A stretch of DNA of 63,881 bases, counting the filler, from Reclinomonas americana ATCC 50394 (Eukaryota), in NCBI GenBank assembly GCA_048213135.1. It is 3 parts of 2 records of this genome, joined end to end, with 100 filler letters (N's around TTAATTAATTAA, not from the genome) between each part and the next. Parts side by side here need not be neighbours in the genome. Positions count along the whole stretch, not along the records: positions 1 to 27,447 come from PS015025.1; 2 more parts are not named here. The stretch is one strand, 5' to 3'. The position numbers and the translations under genes are program-made. This document shows positions 1-43,053 of this stretch, one piece after another. Under the pieces are notes generated by a model. The model made no database searches. It worked only from the letters and a program-made list of their open reading frames with translations, and was not told the origin of the DNA. Every line of letters begins with the position of its first letter. Within the stretch, counting starts at the first letter, position 1.

Positions 1-1847
1 CTACCTTACCATCTGCGAATGGCAGGGCTGCTCGGTGCTCCTCGGCTTCAATCCGGTGGAGCTGTCGCGCAATGCGCCGATTGAGAAGTGGGATCGGTGC
101 GTGTTTTGTGCTTGACCTCTCTCCTCCGTCCTCGCCACTGACTCCGTGGCGAGCAGCACCTTCCGTGATGTGGCGGTGGCATTTAATGCACGTGCTGACG
201 ACCGTCATATTATGCTGACGCCGGTGGTCGGGCCCGAGGTAGGCCTGATTGATGGACATGCAGCGAAGCTGCACTCTTCTCATCACTATCACGCTGCAGG
301 GCATCACGGGCTCGACGAGAATGAAGGGCGGCTCCGGCACGAAACTGATTCTCGATGCGGCGTTTGGCGCTGCTCTGCAGACCGCACTGGCGGCGCCAGA
401 AGACGGTGAGCAGGCCGTGCTTCCTGATTTCTCCGACTGTGTCACTCACTTCGCGCCGGCACTCGCAGTCGACGCGTCCATTCGCTCGTGGGTCGAGCGC
501 ATCTTGGACAGCACCGAGGCTGCGGTGGAGCGTCTGTACACCGAGTATGCCACCGACCTGGCGGCTGTCGTGCAGTTGGCTGCCAACTCGCTGGCACAGG
601 GCGGCAGTGTGACGTACTTGGGTCAGGGCAGTTGCGTCTGCAGCAAGGAGGAATGTGCGGAGCTAACGACTCACATGATCCTCTGCTGCAGATTTCGGTC
701 TCCTCGGCTTTGTTGATGCCTCGGAGTGTCCGCCCACCTACGGTGCCGCATTCACCGACATTCGTGGATTCCTTCGCTATGGGTGGGACGAGATGCGCAA
801 CCAAGAGGTTCGCCTGATGTGCACCAGTCAGTTTGTGCTGCACCACCGCTCACTGACCATGGCGAACAGGGAAACCTGAGTGGCGTGGGTGCGCCGTACG
901 AGATCTCACATGCAGACTTTTTCAGCAAGGTCGCACCGCACCTGTCATCGAAGGACCTGGTCGTCTTTTTGATGCAGACCACAGAGGAGGTGGAGTACTA
1001 CGCCGAGGTACGCCAGCGCATTGAGGCGGCTGTCGAGACGGCCGAACGACCTCGCATGGCGGCTCTGTGTGTGTTCGACGCCGAGGTCGGTGGACGCCAC
1101 GATAGTTGTTGTTATTGTTGGTGAACGTCCCTCACGTATTCTGCAGGGACCACGAGTGCACATGGCCGATGTCGATGCGTACATCTCGGTGCCGGTGGCC
1201 TCCTCTGTCAAGACTGCTGTCGGTCGGTTCACTCCGGAGGCTGAACTCTCGCTGAAACTGAGTCTGAATGCCATCACCACCGGCATGTGTATCTTTTGGT
1301 GGCTCAGGTTTATTGTCGATCCGTGAACTCACCCAAAGGTATCGTCACGGCTCACGATGCAGGTGCCCATGTGATGAAGGGCCTGGTGTTCGGCAATCGC
1401 ATGATCAATGTCAAAGTCAGCAACAACAAGCTGTACCACCGCGCCATTTCCATCATTGCCACGGTATACCGCGTTCCTCTGCTCTGGATCATCACGGAGA
1501 TACCCATCCATTTCCTGTGCAGATTGCCAAGGTGTCAACCGAGGAAGCCACTCGTGCCTTGCATCGCTCGATTTACGAGGACATTGATCCGGAGCGCGAC
1601 GTGTCCGTGTCGGAGCGCATCAGCGTGGCTGTGGAGAAGGAAAAGGTGAATGCAATGTGCTTGTTGTGGGAGGCGAAGAGAGCGAAAGTCTGACTTTGCA
1701 GTTCTTCGTGTACAGGTCGTCCCCGTGGCGTTGCTGTTGGCGTTGCGTGGCCGTGAGATCGCGGCCAAGGACGCCATTCGCGCGCTGGCGGAGGAGCCTG
1801 TGGTGCGAGTGTGCATGCAAAAGTGGACCGAGTCCAAGGGTTCATGA
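1..1847 (+). CDS. GCKR: Glucokinase regulatory protein-like (tandem SIS domains), 5'-partial, multi-exon
   Basis: Spliced translation: LLGFNPVELSRNAPIEKW, VVGPE|GITGSTRMKGGSGTKLIL, LGFVDASECPPTYGA, ELSLKLSLNAITTGAHVMKGLVFGNRMINVKVSNNKLYHRA; TGA at 1845-1847. Confidence 0.85.
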
Positions 1848-1901
1848 GCGGAGTACATTCAGATTTGATTTACGGTACTGCTGCTGCTGTTGTTGTTGCC
1901 A

Positions 1902-4900
1902 CTAGCAAGTGCACTGGCTGAGCGGCACATTGAGCGGAGGCGTGTGACCGCAGCACGGGACGTAGTACGGATCTGTGGATCGAGAGTGTGAGTACGCAAG
2001 AGAAATGCCGAAACGATGATCCGCATCCCTGACCTTGCGGGTCGAGCTGCGGCTGGCCCTTGACAATGGTGGCCTGGTGAGCGGCCACGGCAGCTTTGAT
2101 CTGCGCCATGATGTCGGGGTACTGCGACACGTCCAGCGGGTACGCCTCGCTCGGGTCGTGCTGCGCGGGACATGTCACACTCTGATAAGAACAACGACGT
2201 GCTTTGTGTGCAAACCTCAATGTTGTAGAGGAGAGGCGGGTCGTGCTTCTGCGGCGCATCCAGCGTGAACCCGTCGCGCGTGAAATAGTGCGCCTTCCAC
2301 GGACCCACACGAGCAGCGTACAGCGTGTGCTCGCGCCAGTAGAAGAACTGATTGCTGACACCCTGCGCGAGTGATAAGAGAGCACCGTCAGCGCATGCAG
2401 AGCGTGTGGGAGTAATGTGTGGCAACGCAACTGGCCCATTGTGGAACAGAATGTTGGAGAGGCTGTGGCCGTCATAAACGCGGTCGGAGGGCGGTTTGGC
2501 ACCTGGGTAACGGGAATGAGTGGGGAGCACAATTGTGGGGTGAGAAGTGGAGCGCTTGCTGCAGCGCACCAGCCAGCTCAGCAATCGTGACAAAGAGGTC
2601 CATGGTAGACGCCTGTGGACGCATTCATGAGTAAGTATTTGCTCCCTGTGAACAAGCTCGTGCTGGTTTCATGCGAACCACTTCCATCGACAAAGTCATG
2701 GGTGCGATACGGCCGGGCCAGCGCGCGATTGCGGGCTGCAGCAATGCAAGTCAAAACGAGTGGACGGTGAGGGGCTAGACAATGCATCGCAACTTCACGC
2801 ATGCCACCCTCCCACGTGGAACCCTGCGAGTGTGACTGCGTTGGCGACGGCACGAGTAAAGAGTGTGAATTGAGACGTACCTTGCCGCCGCGGAAGAGGC
2901 CGCCGCTGCCGCCTTTTACTTCCTACGAGAGGAGTGTGTGTGTGTGCATGAGTGAGTGAACAAGCAGTGATGCTTCGATGCAACAGCATGCTGCATGACG
3001 AGAGAGACCTGGTTAATCCACGGTCCGTTGTCTAGCAGCAGACACCAGTGAGACAATAATGAACAATACAGCGACCCAGGGGAGACCATGCACCTGAAGT
3101 GAAGAACACAAACGTGTTGTCGTCGAGGCCGAGACTCTTCAGGCGCTGCATGATCATGCCTGCATTTCCCACATGAGATGCCTATCCAACGGTACCAACA
3201 AAATGGAGGGACGTACCGATAGAGTTGTCCATCTCTTCCATGGCGTCGCCAAAGAGACCACTGCATGACGAAACGAGGATAGGTCACCAAACCGCGATAC
3301 AGCCACTGCGGTAAAAAGTACACAAACAGACCGGCGCGACACATTCTTGAATTGATCACTGGCAAACAGATCCACATGCACCTCTGTCGCGCACATGTCA
3401 GCGAGTGGAGTAGAATTAGAGGCAGAAAACATCGCTCACCGTCGTACGCCATGTACAAGAAGAACGGCTTGTTCTGGTTGTGCGAGATGAACTCAAACGC
3501 ACGAGCATTGTATCTATGTTGGAATGGTGATGATGAAAAACATACATACAGAAACAGCGATGTCGAGGGTGACGCATTACCGTGGAGTCAGCGTGTCGAG
3601 GTCCACCGGCTACACCAAGAGGAGTGAGTGAGTACGAGAGAGGACAAGAGATAGCCGGAGTGGCAGCGTCACCTGCTGGATGATGGTGTTGTTTTCCATC
3701 TGCACGCGCAATCCCAAAAGTGAGCGGATGAATGTAAATGCATGCGACAAGCTGAGCAACTCACCAGCGGAACACCCTGTGTGGAGTGCAACATGCAGCA
3801 AGTGAGTCAGTAAAAGAAAGGGAGGCGCATGAATTGCATGCACGCACAGGCCCTGTTTGCAGAGAAAAGGAGTCAGTGAGAGGGGAGAGAGAACAGCTCG
3901 GGAACACAAACAACGCACAAATGTTCTGCCACTCCTGCAAGCACGACCAACAAACAAGCTCGTGAGCGCCATAATTGTGGCAGTAAATGGCTGAGCAGGG
4001 GCACGCAACGTGGCAGGGGTACGGCGGGCATCCTTCGTCCTGTGAGTACGGCCTGCGCACGGAAAAAATGTAAATCGCTACTCCACTCCATGCGCGCATT
4101 CCACGGACGCAACAGGCCCTGCACGACAACGAGTGAGACCATGGACGTATCACACGCGATTCGCGGCACGCACGTAAAAGTAGTCGAAACCATGGTCCGT
4201 GGGGCGGAAACCGGGGAGATGTCTTCATAGAGAGAGTGGAGTGAGAAGTTATCGGCTCACTGCACCACCTTGCACAAAACGCACCCCAGATGCCACTTGC
4301 CGATCAGACTGTATGGATGTACACGGAGGCGTGTCAGCGGAGAAACAAGTTCTGAACAGCGAGGCACGAAGAAACAAACCCCGTCTGATAACCCGACGAC
4401 TTGAGCAGCGACGCAATGGTAACCTCCGAGGGCGGCAACCCGCCCGTCGACGACGGGTAGAACACACGGAACACATTGTCGGCAGGCCAGTCATCCGCCG
4501 TGTACACGCCGTTGCGCTACCGGAGGGAGAGCGTGAGCGAGCAGTCACGCGACGAGAAGCCACAAAAAGAAAACGCAACAATCGGCAGTCGGCCCGTCAT
4601 CAGTGCTGCGGAGCATCATGGTNNNNNNNNNNNNNNNNNNNNNNNNNNNNNNNNNNNNNNNNNNNNNNNNNNNNNNNNNNNNNNNNNNNNNNNNNNNNNN
4701 NNNNNNNNNNNNNNNNNNNNNNNNNNNNNNNNNNNNNNNNNNNNNNNNNNNNNNNNNNNNNNNNNNNNNNNNNNNNNNNNNNNNNNNNNNNNNNNNNNNN
4801 NNNNNNNNNNNNNNNNNNNNNNNNNNNNNNNNNNNNNNNNNNNNNNNNNNNNNNNNNNNNNNNNNNNNNNNNNNNNNNNNNNNNNNNNNNNNNNNNNNNN

Positions 4901-7503: not shown

Positions 7504-10172
7504 ATGCGCATGCTGTTGACTCGCCTGTGCGGTCGCCGCCTCTTCTCGTCCTCGGCGGCTGCGCGCAGTGCCAATGTGCCCGCTGTGGTGCCGAACAGCT
7601 CTGACACTCCGCCCGAGAGCCCTCCAAAGCACATCCCCACCGGGAAGGAGGTGGCCGACGCCGCCTTTGCCACTGCGCGATCGCACGTGCGCACCATGGC
7701 GTTTGCGCCACAGCCGATCCTCACCTCGGCGCAGCAGGAGGAGGCCTCGATGCCGCGAGTGCGACCGACAGCGTTGCCGTCGTTGCAGTCGCTGCCGGTG
7801 ACACTGAAGGATGTGCGCAAGGCACACGCGGCCATCAGTTGCGCTTCACTCGCGTGTGTGTGTGTGTGTGGAGTCCGCATTTGGTTGTTGATTGCGTCGG
7901 TGATCATCAGAGTCGTCGATTTGCAAGACCGAGCTCAAGTATAGCTTCCACCTGTCGAACTTGTCGGGTTGCGAGGTGCTGCTCAAGTTGGAGAACACGC
8001 AGATGACGGCCTCGTACAAGGAGCGTGGCGCGTTGAATAAGCTGTTGGTGCGAGCGATGATGGTGTACGGATCTTCGTGGATTGTTTTCGAACTCTCGGC
8101 TCATGTTGCTGGCGATGTGGTGTGTGCGTGTAGAGTTTGACTCCGGAGGAGCGTTCGCGTGGTGTCATTTGCACGTCTGCCGGCAATCATGCGCAGGTGA
8201 GTGTGTGCGTGTTGGTGGAGAGGGAGATCCGTGTTCCGCGGACAGAGATATATTTGCTGTTGTTGGTTGCAGGCGGTGGCGTACCAGGCCAGCCGGCTCG
8301 GAATGAAGGCCACCATTTGCATGCCACGTACCACGCCGTTCACCAAGGTGTGTCTTCCGCGGGAGTGCACTGGCATGCTTGTCGGCGACTCACACTTGCA
8401 ACGGCCCAACAGGTCAGCGGCACCAAGCGATGGGGCGCCAAGATCGTGCTCAAGGGCGATTCGTTTGACGAGACCATGCAAGAGAGTCTGCGCATCCAGA
8501 AGGAGGAGGGCAGTGTGTTCATCCACGCGTTCAACGATCCTATGGTCGTAGCTGGTGCTTGCGGGATGATGGTATCGTGCTTCATGCGCACACTTTCACT
8601 GACTTTTTTTGTTGCGCAGGTCAAGGCACTGTGGCGCTGGAGGTGTTGGGTGAGTGACCTACTAGATATACATGTGTTGTGCAACGATGATCGACTCATA
8701 TCTCGCACCCGGCACAGAGCAAGACCCGTTCATCGACAGGTACATCTTATCGGCCATTATTTCTCCGGGCGAGTCGCTTTGCGTTCTCACTCGTACTGCG
8801 TAGTATCATTGTCCCCGTCGGTGGTGGTGGTCTAGTGGCTGGCATCCTGGCCGTCGTTGCGTTCTTGGCTCGCATCGCATTCCGCTTGTGTGGCGGACCG
8901 CTGATTCTGTGTGATCGTGCAGGTGAAGGCCGTCAATCCGCGCATCAAGGTCGGCGGCTTGAACACCGTGTCCTCTGCTTCCTTGCCCATGACTAACTTG
9001 GCATCTCTGTGGCAGGTTTACGGAGTCGAGTCGGCGCAAATGGCTGGCATGGTGCGCAGGATGTGGTGCAAGCAAGCGATTGTTGTTGTCACTCACGCAT
9101 CACGTTGTGCAGAAACGGAGCATGGCGCGTGGAGAGGTGACTTCTGTGGCTCCTCGGTGCGTCACCTTCTTGACCCTGCAACTGATGCTTCGCCGCCAAG
9201 ATGCATGTGCTCACCGCATACATTTTCTCCTCCCGCAGCAAGACAATCGCCGATGGTATCGCCGTCGGAACCGTGGGCAAGGTGCGTGTTTCTGTGTCTC
9301 ATTATTCCCCGGAGCTGGCACCTCACCGCTGAACTGCCCTTCCAGATTCCTTTTGACATTATCTTCCCGTACCTCGACGAGCTGGTGTTGGTCGACGAGA
9401 ACGACATCAGGTGTGTCATTAAGATTTTGCTTTCTCACATCATCTCTGCTCAACTGTCGTCGCGTGCAGTCTGGCGTTGCTGAAGCTGCTGGAGCTGGAA
9501 AAGACTCTGGTGGAGGGCTCGGGTGCGGCCGGTGTCGCTGCGCTGCTGAGTGGTCGCCTGCCACTGCAACCGGGCGAACGGACCGCCGTCATGTGCACGG
9601 GCGGAAGTTGCGCTAGTTTCACATTACTATGGATCGTCTCTCAGTTTTCGCTCACCGCCATCATAACCCCCCAGATATCGACATGGCCGTGATTGGCAAG
9701 GTGCGTGGGACGCACCTAATGTACCACATTGTGGCGCTGACAGTTCTTATTCGATGCAGATTATCGATCGTGGTCTCGTCAAGGTCTCGCACCAACTCAC
9801 CCTGCCACCACGCACATGTGTTTCACCTCGCCTCACTTTCTCTTCCTCTCGCACGCAGGATGGACGCCTCACGCGCTTCATCTTCACCGTGCCCGACGTG
9901 CCGGGCTCGCTCGCCAATGTTCTCTTCTTCCTGGCCGACCAGGGTGTCAATGTGCAAGACGTTGGTGAGTTTTGCCCATCCGAGCTGTTTCACGCCTTTG
10001 CGTTTGACGACTGAATCGCCACACCCTCGCAGCACACGAACGGTCGTTCTACGACGTGCCTGTGGGCTTCACGCAGCAGATTGTCACGTGCGAGGTGCGC
10101 GGCCACGACCACATTGCCTCAATCCTGGAGGGACTCAAGACCCTCAACATCAAGTACGAGGTGGTGCTGTAG
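7504..10172 (+). CDS. ilvA: Threonine ammonia-lyase (dehydratase) with one C-terminal ACT domain and a likely mitochondrial presequence
   Basis: LKLENTQMTASYKERGA (PLP lysine), SAGNHAQAVA, FIHAFNDP, AGQGTVALE, VPVGGGGL, TIADGIAV, VEGSGAAG, TGGNID, ACT motif VPDVPGSLA..HER; Arg/Ser-rich N-terminus; TAG at 10170-10172. Confidence 0.95.
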
Positions 10173-10451: not shown

Positions 10452-11890
10452 CTAAATGGAACCCCCGTTCGCCCCAGACAGAGAGAGGAACTCGCGTCGC
10501 AGCTCGCGGTTGGAGCGGAAGTCGCCGGTGGTGAACACGGTCACGGTGGTGGAGCCAGTCTTCTCCACGCCACGCATGGCCATGCACATGTGAGTGGCCT
10601 CGGTGCGCACCGCCACGCCTCGTGCACCCAAGATCTCTTGCATCGTCTCCGCCACCTGCCGCGTCAATCGCTCCTGCACCTGCAGCCGACGCGCAAAGCA
10701 CTCCACGAAGCGCGCCATCTTCGACAGTCCCAGAATCTTGCCGTTGGGCAGATAGCCGACAGTCACTTTGCCGTAGAACGGCAGCATGTGGTGCTCGCAC
10801 ATGGAGAAGAAGTCTGCGTGCCGCGGTGANNNNNNNNNNNNNNNNNNNNNNNNNNNNNNNNNNNNNNNNNNNNNNNNNNNNNNNNNNNNNNNNNNNNNNN
10901 NNNNNNNNNNNNNNNNNNNNNNNNNNNNNNNNNNNNNNNNNNNNNNNNNNNNNNNNNNNNNNNNNNNNNNNNNNNNTACGACACAAAAAACAATACAAAA
11001 AACACGCACGAGACACGCAACTAATGTCCTTGACGACCACCATCTCATCGGCCTCGTCCTCAAACACGGCGTCGTTCAACACCTCTGCCACCACGGTCAA
11101 CAATCGCAACAGACACACGCACACACAAACAAAGAGGCGACCACACACCAATCGGATCTTGTTGATAGCCCTGTGCTCCATACATCAGTCACCGTGGAGA
11201 GCAGGTACACACAGAGAGAGGGTGACGCACACACATACCTTGGTGAGGAAGCACAGAGCCTTGGCCCAGCGATCCGGCGTCTTCAGCAGTCCATCGCGCT
11301 TCACATCCTCACCAATCGCCGACAAGATCTTCACACACGTACACAAATGAGTGACAAGCAAACACGCACACACACGCGCACACGCACCTGTTCGCCTGCC
11401 TCTCGCAGTGCCTCCAGCTTGGCCTCTGGCACATCGCCCATGGACAGCGAGGGTGCCGCGAGTGAAGGCGAGCTCTCCTCATCACCCTCGCGACGCATTG
11501 CTGCTTGTCGATGCGCGTGGTTGTGCTGACCGTGACGATGTGCAGGCGACGATGAGCTGCTCTGCCCCGAGCTCTCCTCTGCGTGAGAGAGAAAGAGAGA
11601 GAGTCAGTGCATGTGTGTGTGGGAGAGTGTATGTGTGTGCGCGCAGACAAACCGCCGGAGAAGTCGTCAATGGAGCGCGACTTGGTAAAGGCGCTGCGCT
11701 GCTGCTGTTGCTGTTGTTGTTGGTGGAGAGGGTGCTGGTTGTGTCGCGGCGCTGGAGGCGACGAGGGTCCGCGCAGAGGCTGCTCGAGGGGGGAGAGTGG
11801 AGATGCAGCAGTGTCGGAGTCGTGGCCGGCGGTGGCCTCGGCCGGTAGTGAGATGCTGTCGCCGAGGCGAGTGGGTGCGGGGTCGCTCAT
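10452..11890 (-). CDS. GCH1: GTP cyclohydrolase I with long low-complexity N-terminus
   Basis: [74 protein letters not shown]. Confidence 0.96.
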
Positions 11891-12040: not shown

Positions 12041-15000
12041 TCACTTGGGCTTGGCCACCGAGTACGTCGGAAACGGTGGCTGCCAGTCGCTGCCGGGTGC
12101 GCGAGCCGCTGTCGCCGGTGGGGCGGATACAGGAAACTGCAGTGGCTGTGACAAGGCCGACGGCGGGGTCACTGCCGATGTCGGCTGCAGTGATACCGGT
12201 GAGCGCTGGTGCGACAGCAGTGTGATTCGGGCAATGCCGAGCGAAGCACAGTAGACGCGGTGATCGCCGTTGGCCCAGTCCTGCTGCTGGCAGTGGCGAC
12301 TGCAGTAGCGCGCAACATGGCACCGCGAGCAGCGCTGCAGCACACAATTGCCGCTGCCGCACGACCAGCATAGCCGCTTCCACCGCGAATTGGCCGACGA
12401 TCCACTACCGCTTGCAGCTGCTGCAACTGCCGCCGCCGCCGCTGCTGCTGCAGATCCCGACGCCGGCTCCACCTCCGCCTTCGTAACATCTGTTGTTGGG
12501 ACTAGTGTTGTCGACGCCGGTGTCGTTGTTGTTGTTGATGCTGTTGCGGCTGTCGTCGTTGTTGTCGTTGTTGTCGTGGTGGTGGAAGTGGTGGTGGTGG
12601 AAGTGGCCGAGGTTGCAGACGTCTTTGACGACATGCTCAAGCCGGCTGCCGCAGCAAATAGTGCGTACGCTGGCGCCTCGCGTTCACGATATCGCTGGCG
12701 CTGGGCGGCGCCACTGGAGATGGCCGACATGGCACTCGGTCGGCTCGGGTACGTGCTCGGGTACACGTACAACAGACCTGGGCGATGCACGCCGGGGACA
12801 TGCATCAGCGCCGGCACCCATCGTGGGTCACTGGCAGGCGCCGGCGATGAACCGGGAGCGGCCTCCAGGCCCATGGCAGTCACCTCTGCTGCCGCCGACG
12901 GCGGCACCACACGCGACACAATCTGCTCGTACAGCGGATCGGTGTGTGGCAGCGTGTTGGAGCCCTCTGGCACGCGCACGTTGACGGCCACCGACGGCAC
13001 ATGCGCCTCGCTCGCTAATGGCGGTAGTGTGGGTGACGGCGGTCTCACGGGCGGAAGAGATGCGAGCGCTTGTGCGGAGAGTGAGTGCGATGCGGGTTTG
13101 TTGTGCACGCCATTGACGGTCGACGAGAGCGTGATGGTGGCGCGCACCGGCTGATCCGATGCACTTGCGACAGCCGGCACCGCTGCACACAGAAATAAGG
13201 ATGAGCGCTCGACAAGAGTTACAGTGGACAGACATCACCACCACCACCAACCTGCGGCGCCGTTCGCCGGGGCCTTGCCCGTCTGGGAGTTGGAGACGGC
13301 AACTGCAGCAGCAGCCATGGCTGCGACCTTGGCCTGCAACGGCATGTTCATGTTCGACGAGTGCCGCAGCACCGCAGACGACACGGCCGCCACTGCCGCC
13401 ACCAGAGCCTCGGATTCTGTTGAATTCCACAATGGCTCCAACTTTTTCAGCGCCGCCGGTGGCAACGAGGCCACCAGCGACATGATAGTTTCCGAAATCT
13501 CCTCATCCGGCAACACAATCGACCCCGGTGTTCCTGCCACAGCGTTTTCGCTGAGTGCATGCACCACGTGATCGGAGCAGACGGGAGAAAAGAGAAAGAA
13601 AGAAAAGACAAACCCTCCGCCGCAGCGGCCACTGCCAGCTGCTCAGCACGATCAGTCAGCGTCCGCGTCGCTTGCTCCCAACTCTCCGTGGCTACACGAT
13701 GATGAAACAGGTGAGCAGCGAGAGAATACTCCTTCAAAACATTTCGACGAACACAAAACGCAACGAATGGCATTGATGATTTCGCAAATGGAGGACGGTG
13801 TGAGCCTCGGTGAGTCCAGCAGACGAATGAATGGCTCTTTCGCGGCCGCCGGTGCGGCCACCTCAACCGGTCCAGCTGCTGCCGGTGGTGGCGAGGCGAC
13901 TGGCGGAGTCGGAACGGGTGCAACAGGTGGCGGCCGATTGCCGACGCCGTGCCGAATGATCGAGTCTCGCAGCCAGTCCACCAACGGTTCGCCAAGTGTC
14001 TCAAACTATGTGCATGCGACCACAAAAATGAGCACCGCATGGCGACCCCCTGTCTCTAACTGCCGACACTCACCACGCCCGTATTGAACACATCCACTGG
14101 AACTGTTCGCAAACCGAGATCGACAAACGTGTCCACCAGCACACGAAAATCGGCGTCGGGTCCGTGCGGATGTGATTGCGCAAAGGGATCGCGTTCACAT
14201 CGCTCGCACTTGGCACCGCCAGCTAAACACGTCACCACCGACGACTGTAGCGCGGTGAGGAAGAGCGACTTGAGCACTGGTGGTGAGTAGTCCAGCTCGC
14301 CATCCGTGCCGGCCACGGTGGGTGGCGACGGGTCCAGAAGCAAGAGATCGGGCAACTCCTCAAAGATGGCTCGCATCTGCCGCCAGTACCCTTGCGTCAC
14401 ACACATTTCTAGTGGCGTGTCAATCGCCTGTGTACCACACACATAATGTCAGTGTCTCCATCATTGTTGCAGGCACTTTGTGTCGACTCACCGCACACGC
14501 TGCACGGGAGCGACAATCCACGCAGTTCGAGTCGTCCGAGTCGTGTGGTGGTGGCGTTGGGTGCGAATGTGGATGAGCGCCAGCACGAATGAGTGCACGA
14601 ACAATGCTCACATCACGCCCGTAGTAGCACGCCAAGTGCAGCGGCGTGTACTGCGCACACAGGGAGGAGGTGAGTCGAAGAGCAGGAGCAAGAGTGGCGT
14701 GTCGAAGAGCTGCCTCACCCCCGACACATTGGCCAGAGTTGGATCGGCGTTGTTGGCAATCAGCACCGTCACATGTCTGTATGTACCGTACATGACTGCC
14801 TCGTGCAGTGCATACCATCGACCGGGTTTGATGGGCTGGCTGACCAAAAAGGCGCCCGCCTGTGTGATGTGTCTCCGATAGTTGTCGAAATCGACCACTT
14901 CCCGATCGCCCAGCAACGTCGACTGGCCCAGCACCGACGCCTCGTCTGGTCGAAGATGATACGCGGCACACAGTGTGTGATACGTGAGACGAACCCAGCG

Positions 15001-17884: not shown

Positions 17885-18712
17885 ATGCCGAAGGAGATCA
17901 AGGATATGAAGAAGTTTGTCCTCCTTGCGAGGAACAACGCCAAGAGTTGGGCAAGAGTGTTGCTGTGTGTGTGTGTGTGTGTGTGCCGCATGTGTGCGTG
18001 ATGGCTGCTCACACACTCGTGCACAGCGTGCAAGATCAAGCGCATCAAGGGCAGCGAGGCCACCAAGTTCAAGGTCAGTCACTTCTCCGCGTGTAATCGC
18101 TTCTCTTTTCTGTCACTCTTTGAGAGAGAATTGAGATCCCCTCTTAATGGTGACGTTCCTCGCTCCACACTCCTCTGGCACACGCGCACACACACATACA
18201 CGCACTATATGTGTGTGTATGTGTGGGTGTGAGTGCGTGTGTAATGCGTGTGGGCCCATGAGGATCGGCAAGGTTTCCGGAGGGGAGAATAAGCAGAGAA
18301 GACGCAAGTCTCTTCTGGTTCTTTTGCTGTGACGCCCTCGCCCCTGCGTGCGTCTTCTCTCGTCGTGTTATTGTGGGGAGTAGTTCTGGTGCACGGATCG
18401 TGCCCGGGTAGCTCGTGGCATGCACGCAGTAGAAGCGCTTGGCAGACCAGAGGCACAGTGGAGATACATGATCACTTGATCAATCGCGCATGTGACAATG
18501 ATGATGATGTGTGTGCGCGTGCAGCTGCGCTGCGGACGGTACCTGTACACACTGCTGGTGGAGGACCTCAAGAAGGCCGACAAGCTCAAGGGCGTGTTGC
18601 CGCCGGGTGAGTCGTCTGCGCTTGCCACCGTCGTCTTGCTCACTCACTCACCACGCTGACTGTCGTGTGTGCGTGTGTATTATCAGGCCTGAAGAAGGTC
18701 GAGATCAAATAA
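17885..18712 (+). CDS. RPL38: 60S ribosomal protein L38 (eL38), 4 coding exons plus a 5'UTR intron ending right before ATG
   Basis: [71 protein letters not shown]. Confidence 0.96.
18137..18460 (+). ncRNA. Candidate structured intronic RNA (possible H/ACA snoRNA) in RPL38 intron
   Basis: Inverted repeats TCCCCTCT/GGAGGGGA, AGAGAAGACGCA/TGCGTCTTCTCT and TCTGGT/ACCAGA; AGAATA (ANANNA) after hairpin 1 and ACA after the last hairpin; the intron is 451 nt versus about 60-100 nt typical. Confidence 0.33.
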
Positions 18713-24000: not shown

Positions 24001-24076
24001 AGAGCGGTGGCGAAGCTCGGTCTAACGCACCAGATTAAGGTTCTGGCATTCGCGGGTTCAAATCCCGTCCGCTCTA
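24001..24076 (+). tRNA. tRNA-Leu(AAG) with short (5-nt) variable loop
   Basis: Acceptor AGAGCGG/CCGCTCT+A73; D arm GCG-AAGCTCGGTCTAA-CGC; anticodon arm CCAGA-TTAAGGT-TCTGG; variable CATTC; T arm GCGGG-TTCAAAT-CCCGT. Confidence 0.93.
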
Positions 24077-24086
24077 CTTCTTTTTT
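24077..24086 (+). terminator. Pol III oligo-T terminator of the tRNA
   Basis: CTTCTTTTTT directly 3' of the tRNA. Confidence 0.75.
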
Positions 24087-24531
24087 GATTTTTATTTCCT
24101 TTTTTTCTTTTTCTGACACTGACACTGAGTGAGACTTGCGCAGGCAGAGTGGCTTTTGATTAATTTNNNNNNNNNNNNNNNNNNNNNNNNNNNNNNNNNN
24201 NNNNNNNNNNNNNNNNNNNNNNNNNNNNNNNNNNNNNNNNNNNNNNNNNNNNNNNNNNNNNNNNNNNNNNNNNNNNNNNNNNNNNNNNNNNNNNNNNNNN
24301 NNNNNNNNNNNNNNNNNNNNNNNNNNNNNNNNNNNNNNNNNNNNNNNNNNNNNNNNNNNNNNNNNNNNNNNNNNNNNNNNNNNNNNNNNNNNNNNNNNNN
24401 NNNNNNNNNNNNNNNNNNNNNNNNNNNNNNNNNNNNNNNNNNNNNNNNNNNNNNNNNNNNNNNNNNNNNNNNNNNNNNNNNNNNNNNNNNNNNNNNNNNN
24501 NNNNCCTTGATAGTTTTTCATTCTCATATGA

Positions 24532-26630
24532 TTAGAGTGCGTCGGCTGCTGGTCGGCCATTCAGCGCACCGCCTGTCAAACAAGAAAAGTTAGTTTGCAT
24601 GCACCCCAATCGCCAGCCTGCAACACACACACACACACCTGGCGGGCCATCCTCGTCCATGGCCTCATCCTGCACATGCAGTCAGCACTCTCCTCGTGCA
24701 CACACCCTAAGACACACCTACACGCACCTCATCATCCTCGTCTTCCTCGTCCTCCTCTGCTTCGCGTTTCCTCTGCTCCTCCGCGGCTTGCGCATCGAGG
24801 TACGTGGCGTACCGCTCCGTGCACAACGTCCGCAACCGCGTCGAGAATCGCGCCTGGTTCTGCTTCACGTACAACAGCAGATCCTGGATGCCAATGGGAA
24901 CGCGCTCCACGGCCGCCGCTGCTGCCGCGTCGTCCTGCCGCACATAATTCGTCAGCACATCGTGCTGCCCTCCCTCCCACACACAGAGACGCATGCACAC
25001 CTCGGCTTCATCCTTCTTTTTCTGCGCCACCGGCGCCGCCAGCAAGTTGGCTCGCGCGCCCAGCGCCGCCTGCAACGCCGACACCGCACCTGCAGCTTCC
25101 TCCTGCCGTGCCAACTCGTCTTTCTCCTGCTTTTTCTTCGCCTCCTCCTGCAAATCAATCAACGATGAGCACACCTCCCAGACAGCAAATCGTTTGTGAC
25201 ACGCACCTCCGGGTCCTTCTTCTTCTTCTTTTTCTTTGGTCGATCGGCTGCACCGGTGTCAGCATGCACCTCAATATACAAACACACAAACAGCCTCTGC
25301 ATAAAGCACGAACCCACTGGCAACGACTCCACATGCCTGTCGTAGGCCTCTGCCACCGCCCTCGATCGTTTTCTCAACACCAATCCCACACGCGCCTCTC
25401 TAATTTGGTCCGGATACACATCGGCTCGGTGAGCACACGCGTCGGCCTGCAGTGCCTCTTGTGTGAGTGCGCATAACAACAACAGCAACAACAAGAAGAG
25501 GAGCGCGAAAATGACGCACCAGTCCTTGCAACACATCCTTCAGTCTCTCCTGCAACGCCAGCGACAGGTACTTGACGGTGACATCGGGGATGCTCACCAC
25601 TGAGGGTGCCTCGCGCTTCGCCGTCTCGCGCATGCGATGCAGAATCACCGCACGCGCTTGCGGCGGCAATCCGTCACCAGTCGTGTCCACATCACTCACA
25701 TCAAACGCCGTTCGCCGTGACGCCTGCATTCGCTCCTCCTCCGCCTGCACCATTGATCTCCACGTGAGGACACCCACAGCGGACGGACGCGGCGAAGCCA
25801 AACACACACACACACACCTGCACCAACTTGGCATCGACCTCGTACAGCCCACCGTCATCGTCACTCACAACATCGTCATCACCACCGGCTTTCTTCGCCG
25901 CCGCACCTGGCGCAGCCGCAGCAGCCGCCGCCGCAGCAGCAGCAGCAGGACCCGCAAACCGTCCCGCCAGCGCCTGCTTGTACTGCCGAGTCTGCGCCAC
26001 AAGCTGCTCCGCCAGCGCCGAATGCCCCGAGCTCCTCAGCGTCGCCGCGTACTGGTTCATCGCCTCCTCCGACTGCGCGAACCGGTACAAGTGCTCATGC
26101 TGCGCGGACACACACAGTCAGCGTTGAAGGGAAAAAACGGATCGCGCGCGAGTGCGACTCACCGTCCACGGCACAGCTCCCGCTGCTCCCTGCTGCTGCT
26201 GCTGCTGTTGCTGCTGCTGTGCTGCAGTCTGCGATCGCGCGGCGGCAAGTGCAGCGGCCGCAGCGGCAGCTGCAGTGGCGGCTTGCTGCTGCTGCTGCTG
26301 CTGCCTCTGTGCCGCGACTGCCGCCGAAGCCGCCGCCACAGCCGCAGAGTTCTGCGCTGCTGACGTGGATGACGTTGTTGCTGTTGTCGTTGTTGCTGTG
26401 GCCTGCTGCTGTTGATGTGTCTTCAGCCACTCGACAATGTACTGTTGTTGTCTCGGCGCCGGCCATGCAAAGTAATTCTGCGCGCGAGAGAGAGTCAGCA
26501 GGCGTGCATGTGTGTCAGTGAGGTGAGAAAGACGCACTGGATCGACGGATCCCGGCTGCTGTGCAGCGTACTGCTGCAAGTACTGAGTCCACCTGGCCAG
26601 CCACGCCATGTCCACCCCCGTTGACGCCAT
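24532..26630 (-). CDS. TAF4: TAF4-like TFIID subunit
   Basis: Q/A-rich N-terminus; histone-fold-like PDVTVKYLSLALQERLKDVLQ..AHR; AVSALQAALG; C-terminal IGIQDLLLYVKQ resembling the TAF4 conserved C-terminal element. Confidence 0.68.

Positions 26631-40194: not shown

Positions 40195-43053
<2,859 letters not shown>

Follow-up and report, generated by a model that had tools for sequence, protein, structure and literature searches.

A nuclear tRNA-Leu(AAG) gene lacking the long variable arm in Reclinomonas americana

Introduction

Leucine tRNAs without a long variable arm have been described in bacteria and in animal mitochondria. Streptomyces coelicolor has a type I tRNA-Leu(CAA) with a short variable loop (Fan et al. 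2019, PMC6614811; papers identified here by PMC number are cited from extracts). This tRNA shares its compartment with long-arm tRNA-Leu, and a single LeuRS charges both (PMC6614811). As a substrate of that LeuRS, the Streptomyces tRNA sets a precedent for a tRNA-Leu that works armless. Animal mitochondrial tRNA-Leu, a class I tRNA served by a mitochondrial LeuRS, likewise has no long arm (PMC9976931, PMC6614811). It is organelle-encoded, A+T-rich and often structurally relaxed, and its anticodon is UAG or UAA. The converse mismatch between arm class and anticodon is found in the nuclear nev-tRNAs of nematodes, in which a long-arm body carries anticodons that belong to neither Leu nor Ser (PMC3333845).

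Outside animal mitochondria, tRNA-Leu and tRNA-Ser are described as universally carrying the long arm (PMC9976931), and in a survey of Tritryp genomes all Leu and Ser genes were class II. The arm is part of what keeps LeuRS, SerRS and the class I synthetases apart. A search of full-text articles, part of it loosely targeted, returned no eukaryote for which a nuclear or cytosolic tRNA-Leu with a short arm is described; the Diplonema genome paper and a paper on the mitochondrial code of green algae have no bearing on the matter.

LeuRS enzymes differ in what they read. The E. coli enzyme requires A73 and the elbow and does not require the arm, and short-arm tRNA-Leu is charged by human mitochondrial and Streptomyces LeuRS (PMC9976931, PMC6614811). 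The cytosolic enzyme of yeast depends on A73 together with the anticodon loop; in vivo, G18, G37, U55 and A73 of yeast tRNA-Leu are important, while G2, G30, C61 and C62 have moderate effects (PMC9976931). Archaeal LeuRS, which is kin to the eukaryotic cytosolic enzyme, requires the arm (PMC9976931). The human identity set consists of A73, C3-G70, A4-U69, G5-C68, C20a and the variable region (PMC6614811).

Here we analyse a stretch of 63,881 nt, filler included, from the draft genome of Reclinomonas americana ATCC 50394 (GCA_048213135.1). We refer to this whole stretch as the window. It contains a tRNA-Leu(AAG) gene with a variable region of five nucleotides.

Results

The gene is intact and lacks only the arm

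ARAGORN calls a tRNA-Leu(aag) at 24001-24077 on the plus strand. The gene itself occupies 24001..24076, 76 nt including the discriminator A73, and CCA is not encoded. The Rfam tRNA model RF00005 aligns with 24001-24076 over its full length (model 1-71 of 71) at 57.1 bits, against a gathering score of 29, with an E value of 1.1e-9. This is the only tRNA gene that Rfam finds in the 64-kb window, whether matches are taken at the gathering score or at E<=1. At E<=1 there are 19 Rfam matches in the window, and the 18 others fall far below their own gathering scores. Many sub-threshold matches to miRNA models, likely spurious, lie at 26100-26350, a stretch of CAG/GCA-rich low complexity that would encode poly-Q/poly-A in one frame.

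All 20 stem pairs are standard. The acceptor stem (AGAGCGG/CCGCTCT) has seven Watson-Crick pairs, the first of which is A1-U72, and is followed by U8 and G9. The D stem (GCG/CGC) has three pairs, with A13 opposite A22, and closes an 11-nt D loop that contains G18, G19 and the motif GGTCTAA. In the anticodon arm, the stem CCAGA/TCTGG carries the loop TTAAGGT, placing the anticodon AAG (24037..24039) between U33 and G37. The T arm reads GCGGG-TTCAAAT-CCCGT, and A73 lies at 24076. The conserved tRNA bases are all kept (U8, A14, G18, G19, A21, U33, G53, U54, U55, C56, A58 and C61), and G15 and C48 can form a Levitt pair. Where a long arm would stand, the gene has the 5-nt loop CATTC (24047..24051), as seen both in the sequence and in the Rfam alignment.

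As expected of a Pol III type 2 gene, it contains an A box and a B box and is followed by oligo-T. The A-box region, TGGCGAAGCTCGG, lies at 24008..24020 (tRNA positions 8-19), and the B-box region, GGTTCAAATCC, lies at 24055..24065 in columns that are invariant or nearly so in an alignment with long-arm genes (alignment A2, described below). Both regions were read off the sequence by comparison with the general box consensus. Downstream, runs of T6 (24081-24086), T5, T7 and T5 occupy 24081..24112; the T6 run begins 5 nt past A73, and all four runs fall within 36 nt. Among the 59,138 non-N bases of the plus strand, T-runs of at least 6 nt occur just 13 times and those of at least 5 nt 45 times, yet 4 of the 45 lie directly 3' of this gene. 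The cluster is a Pol III terminator and more than a chance occurrence.

Thermodynamic folding is less distinctive. The minimum free energy is -26.4 kcal/mol with a z-score of -1.62, and 14 of 200 shuffled sequences were equally stable, which is not significant; weak z-scores of this kind are common for single tRNAs. The centroid structure contains the acceptor, anticodon and T arms and omits the weak D stem.

These data bear out the preliminary description of the locus, which had reported an intact cloverleaf, A and B boxes, an oligo-T terminator and the Leu-type features GGTCTAA, unpaired 13-22, U33-AAG-G37 and A73. Its two oddities, a variable region of merely CATTC and a first pair of A1-U72, are also present in the sequence. 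The central claim, a tRNA-Leu(AAG) without the long arm, agrees with the ARAGORN call, the full-length Rfam match and the 5-nt loop. The locus is a genuine, intact Pol III tRNA gene of leucine lineage without the arm.

The tRNA body is leucine-type

Comparison genes were gathered with two sequence patterns that differ solely in their spacing over the variable region. The long-arm pattern, run on viral and prokaryote genome contigs, matched 63 loci in the former and 17 in the latter. Across all loci gathered (L001-L088), ARAGORN called 82 Leu(aag) genes, of which 32 are distinct. In alignment A2, the window tRNA can be matched along its entire length to long-arm Leu(AAG) genes by opening just one gap, which falls exactly at the arm. 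Identity over the aligned columns is 58/69 to L038, 58/71 to the L020 group (11 loci, the commonest viral type) and 55/72 to L085, an overall range of 76-84%, and the anticodon stem is the same as in the L020 and L038 viral genes. The one-gap alignment with long-arm Leu genes indicates that the body is leucine-type and that the arm alone is missing.

Individual features agree with this assignment. The window tRNA has the D arm typical of Leu, with a 3-bp stem, positions 13 and 22 unpaired and GGTCTAA in the loop, as do seven long-arm Leu(AAG) genes in A2. It combines a Leu anticodon (AAG, within NAG or NAA) with A73. G37 suits a tRNA built for CUN codons. With a variable region of 5 nt it falls outside class II, which has a variable arm of more than 10 nt, and within the definition of a type I tRNA-Leu, which has a Leu anticodon, A73 and a variable loop of 4-5 nt. 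It is peculiar in two respects relative to all 10 comparison genes: the first pair is A1-U72, which is unusual in an elongator tRNA, and the D loop has two extra bases before G18G19.

The leucine-type body excludes another origin that was considered, mutation of the anticodon in a class I tRNA for some other amino acid. Four of the comparison loci (L073, L075, L084 and L085), on short contigs (950-1742 bp) from prokaryote assemblies and MAGs, carry near-identical 82-nt long-arm tRNA-Leu(AAG) genes; the recorded sources are Brevinema, Desulfobacteraceae, Streptomyces and an unnamed bacterium. These genes presumably resemble vertebrate tRNA-Leu(AAG), and the contigs are probably eukaryotic contamination.

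Short-arm tRNA-Leu(AAG) genes are rare elsewhere

The short-arm pattern had no match in viral contigs and none in 185,579 prokaryote species genomes. In metagenome contigs, scanned with the short-arm pattern alone, it matched eight loci (L001-L008). A second pattern specific to the D loop, AGCTCGGTCTAA-N9-TTNAG, had three viral matches, none of which is a tRNA. Genes for a tRNA-Leu(AAG) built in this way are rare.

ARAGORN recognises seven of the eight metagenome loci as tRNA-Leu(aag), and four reach the Rfam gathering score (L002, 56.0 bits; L007, 54.4; L006, 49.4; L008, 43.4). At 57.1 bits, the window tRNA outscores all other short-arm Leu(AAG) genes to which the Rfam model was applied. Its identity is 57/69 to L002, 49/70 to L001 and 45/67 to L008. 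L007 has the same CATTC loop as the window gene and encodes CCA. None of the eight loci has a eukaryotic nuclear look.

Six short-arm genes, including that of the window, were compared for their base pairing. Standard pairs fill 98.3% of 120 pair cells, 18 of the 20 pairs vary on both sides, and none of 500 shuffles matched this result. As the six were selected by a shared pattern, these values demonstrate a coherent design and not common descent. Judged by its pairing, the armless cloverleaf is a recurrent and coherent design.

The contigs themselves are of several kinds. L001, L004 and L005 are gene-dense with a G+C of 0.38-0.40, and the scanned ORFs of L001 include an RFC small subunit, a GDP-mannose 4,6-dehydratase and an EsV-1-7 cysteine-rich motif protein; gene density, low G+C and the ORF content of L001 make the three giant-virus-like. 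Their short-arm Leu(aag) genes (1847-1920, minus strand, in L001) are identical, have a U-U mismatch in the D stem, and are called by ARAGORN while scoring below the Rfam gathering threshold. L002 carries a short-arm tRNA-Leu(AAG) at 13132-13205 (minus strand) on a gene-dense contig of 14.3 kb with a G+C of 0.36 and all ORFs on one strand. Its uS5 is divergent, and the sole PDB match to its MCM protein at E<=1e-40 is an archaeal chain. It is possible that L002 represents an armless tRNA-Leu in a DPANN-like archaeon, a setting in which the arm is considered necessary for LeuRS. Woesearchaeota and Nanoarchaeota MAGs (L072, L077, L079 and L082) contain Leu(AAG) genes of this style that have the long arm. 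L008 has five Leu tRNA genes within 415 bp (692-1106, minus strand) with all five anticodons, taa, tag, cag, aag and caa; those with tag, cag and aag measure 75-76 nt and are short-armed, and those with taa and caa measure 85-86 nt and are long-armed.

CUY codons are still read as leucine

In 1161 codons from Pfam-matched stretches of the window, Leu is encoded by CTG 48 times, CTC 25, TTG 20, CTT once, CTA once and TTA never. Of the 95 Leu codons in these conserved stretches, 26 are thus CTY, and CTC is the second commonest Leu codon.

We examined the meaning of CTC in several proteins. For the queuine tRNA-ribosyltransferase (TGT), 39 homologues of 250 aa or more, drawn from the best 150 matches, were placed on the window by tblastn, giving 20 CTY rows with 8 or more homologues. 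Four rows (41669, 41639, 41636 and 41631), with commonest residues Q, L, T and L, were left out as intronic. Among the remaining 16 CTC rows, 11 have Leu as their most frequent residue, including rows of 20/20, 35/35, 23/25 and 21/23. The other five are variable columns in which T, Q, Y/R, K and Y each lead once. At the single CTC codon of the GTP cyclohydrolase I fragment, 90 of 120 homologues have Leu. CTC also encodes the first L (7982-7984) of an LKLEN motif and the L of DKLKG in an RPL38-like exon (18519-18608, plus strand), in which both CTC codons read as Leu. The preliminary description had argued from LKLEN and the KLK of RPL38 that recoding is unsupported. Both codons are indeed CTC, and the TGT and GTP cyclohydrolase I columns point the same way. 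Because CTC stands at invariant Leu columns, CUY recoding is not supported.

There is heavy demand here for a tRNA that decodes CUC as Leu. In eukaryotes, CUC is normally read by the product of an AAG gene after A-to-I editing. An extract of the Diplonema genome paper also states that CUC is read by an A-to-I edited AAG tRNA.

Genomic setting

G+C ranges from 0.43 to 0.60 per 4 kb across the window, and that of the tRNA gene is 0.57. The draft is rich in gaps, with 21 N runs in the window, one of which begins 91 nt downstream of A73. We scanned 269 ORFs of 110 aa or more, and 18 had a Pfam match. The families are arylsulfatase, PLP enzyme, GTP cyclohydrolase I, zf-MYND, ankyrin, WD40, mitochondrial carrier, TGT (in five pieces), RFC1 and DnaJ. 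Further comparison of the WD40 ORF brought up generic repeat matches alone, a search of the protein Atlas yielded generic clusters, and the arylsulfatase ORF had no match among longer proteins. Neither a LeuRS gene nor a further Leu or Ser tRNA gene lies in the window. No viral hallmark family was found among the 269 ORFs, and no repeats that would mark a SINE or an insertion flank the tRNA gene.

The TGT gene (40200-42400, minus strand) has GT-AG introns of about 68-75 nt, some of which follow (CT)n(CA)n tracts. Such introns speak against a trypanosomatid source. Its protein is about 60% identical to plant and to vertebrate (including lungfish) QTRT1 alike. The GTP cyclohydrolase I exon (10455-10829, minus strand) is interrupted by an N gap; the best matches to the fragment are cyanobacterial-type enzymes at 60-68% identity, and Chlorokybus and Pavlova entries score lower.

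Leucine identity elements

All eight positions of the yeast-type Leu identity set are present in the window tRNA. The human-type set is mostly missing: the tRNA has A73 and C20a, its three acceptor pairs at those positions read A3-U70, G4-C69 and C5-G68, and the arm is absent. With the yeast set complete, charging with Leu is plausible under a yeast-like rule. Altered LeuRS recognition, which the preliminary description had invoked, would not strictly be required, given the eight yeast positions.

The window tRNA has neither the G3-U70 pair that marks Ala nor the long arm that marks Ser. Synthetases that read the anticodon would reject AAG (identity rules in part from general knowledge and in part from PMC9976931). 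An identity other than Leu is unlikely.

Discussion

We put at about an even chance the reading that the gene produces a real, working armless tRNA-Leu(IAG), in which a 5-nt loop would take the place of the long arm. The gene would most likely be transcribed and processed, with A34 then deaminated to inosine. The cytosolic LeuRS would charge the tRNA with Leu, recognising it in a yeast-like manner through A73, the elbow (G18, G19, U55 and C56) and the anticodon loop (A35 and G37) and making no use of the arm. The product would read CUU and CUC. Intact stem pairs, conserved bases and Rfam score count in favour of a working tRNA, as do the terminator cluster, the leucine-type body, G37, the eight yeast identity positions, the recurrence of the armless design, the demand for CTY decoding and, by analogy, the LeuRS enzymes of E. 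coli, human mitochondria and Streptomyces, which have no need of the arm. Against it count the single gene seen in the window, the A1-U72 pair and two extra D-loop bases, the absence of all three human acceptor identity pairs, and the arm requirement of archaeal LeuRS. The lack of any nuclear-looking locus among the eight similar metagenome genes, the weak fold z-score and the gap-rich draft count against it as well.

If the tRNA works, it would suggest that a eukaryal LeuRS can dispense with the arm in nature, and it would offer a natural system for studying the conversion of a class II tRNA to class I. Isotype calls based on the arm would then call for caution. A broader proposal, that the cytosolic tRNA-Leu(IAG) family or perhaps every Leu tRNA has lost the long arm and that the eukaryal-type LeuRS recognises a class I tRNA, we regard as rather unlikely. 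If true, it would be the first cytosolic switch from class II to class I in a nuclear genome, against the textbook view that only animal mitochondria have made it.

A quite possible, though not favoured, explanation is that a small deletion removed the arm hairpin from one member of a long-arm tRNA-Leu(AAG) family, while normal copies elsewhere do the work. Such a spare copy would be young enough to seem intact and would be silent, unstable or a poor substrate for charging. Odd eukaryotic tRNA genes are more commonly explained as aberrant single copies, the Leu and Ser genes of the Tritryp survey are uniformly class II, and the gene is alone in the window. Its body, which needs one gap to align with long-arm Leu(AAG) genes and is then 76-84% identical to them, is also what a single and recent hairpin deletion in a multi-copy family would leave. 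A spare copy fits less well with stems free of mismatches, a full set of conserved bases and an intact terminator. The residual loop is exactly of class I length and its C48 matches G15. Furthermore, A1-U72 (two matched changes) and the longer D loop together exceed one deletion, unless the normal genes of this organism share both. Were the gene such a copy, it would be an ordinary curiosity, yet one usable as a natural 'minimalist' substrate. Collapse of a real long arm during assembly or sequencing is suggested by the 21 N runs in 64 kb and the gap 91 nt downstream of A73, but we consider it very improbable. The perfectly complementary acceptor strands rule out a chimera of two tRNA genes, and a hairpin of 4-6 bp is probably far below the assembly word size, while a precise 5-nt loop remains.

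The other explanations that we weighed have little in their favour. Short-arm Leu(AAG) genes on the giant-virus-like contigs L001, L004 and L005 and in the five-Leu array of L008 raise the idea that the gene was acquired from a giant virus or mobile element and is now a nuclear resident. We judge this highly unlikely, as identity to L001 and L008 is just 49/70 and 45/67, the ORFs of the window include no viral hallmark family, flanking repeats are lacking and the terminator is of eukaryotic type. Moreover, the G+C of the tRNA fits the window and not the 0.38-0.40 of the viral-like loci. Both the missing arm and A1-U72 depart from the leucine norm, and nematodes provide the converse in long-arm tRNAs with non-Leu anticodons (PMC3333845), so the tRNA could conceivably serve another amino acid, by CUY recoding or mistranslation, or be a tRNA-like RNA with a role outside translation. 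This we find scarcely credible: CTC stands at invariant Leu columns with no other residue recurring, G3-U70 and a long arm are both absent, and anticodon-reading synthetases would reject AAG.

The window gene can be compared with several kinds of known tRNA. The nematode nev-tRNAs resemble it as nuclear tRNAs in which arm class and anticodon disagree, but they are the converse case, since the window gene joins a Leu body and a Leu anticodon and is armless (PMC3333845). Animal mitochondrial tRNA-Leu shares its Leu identity, A73 and lack of a long arm (PMC9976931, PMC6614811). In contrast to these organellar tRNAs, the window gene is nuclear, has a G+C of 0.57, a complete set of canonical elbow bases and the anticodon AAG. 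The type I tRNA-Leu of Streptomyces is similar in its short variable loop; however, it is bacterial, is charged by a bacterial-type LeuRS and has the anticodon CAA, whereas the window gene is nuclear and eukaryotic and has an A34 anticodon of eukaryotic style (PMC6614811). The short-arm Leu tRNAs of L001-L008 share the GGTCTAA D loop, a 5-nt variable loop ending in C, and A73. They differ in host and G+C, are too distant to show common descent and, unlike the window gene, are not found among intron-bearing eukaryotic genes. Finally, the canonical eukaryotic cytosolic tRNA-Leu (AAG, edited to IAG), a class II tRNA, has the same U33-AAG-G37, A73, 3-bp D stem with unpaired 13/22, GGTCTAA D loop, G15 and C48, and T loop. 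The window gene differs from it in having a variable loop of 5 nt instead of the 11-14 nt or so of the comparison genes, A1-U72 in place of G1-C72, and a D loop that is 2 nt longer.
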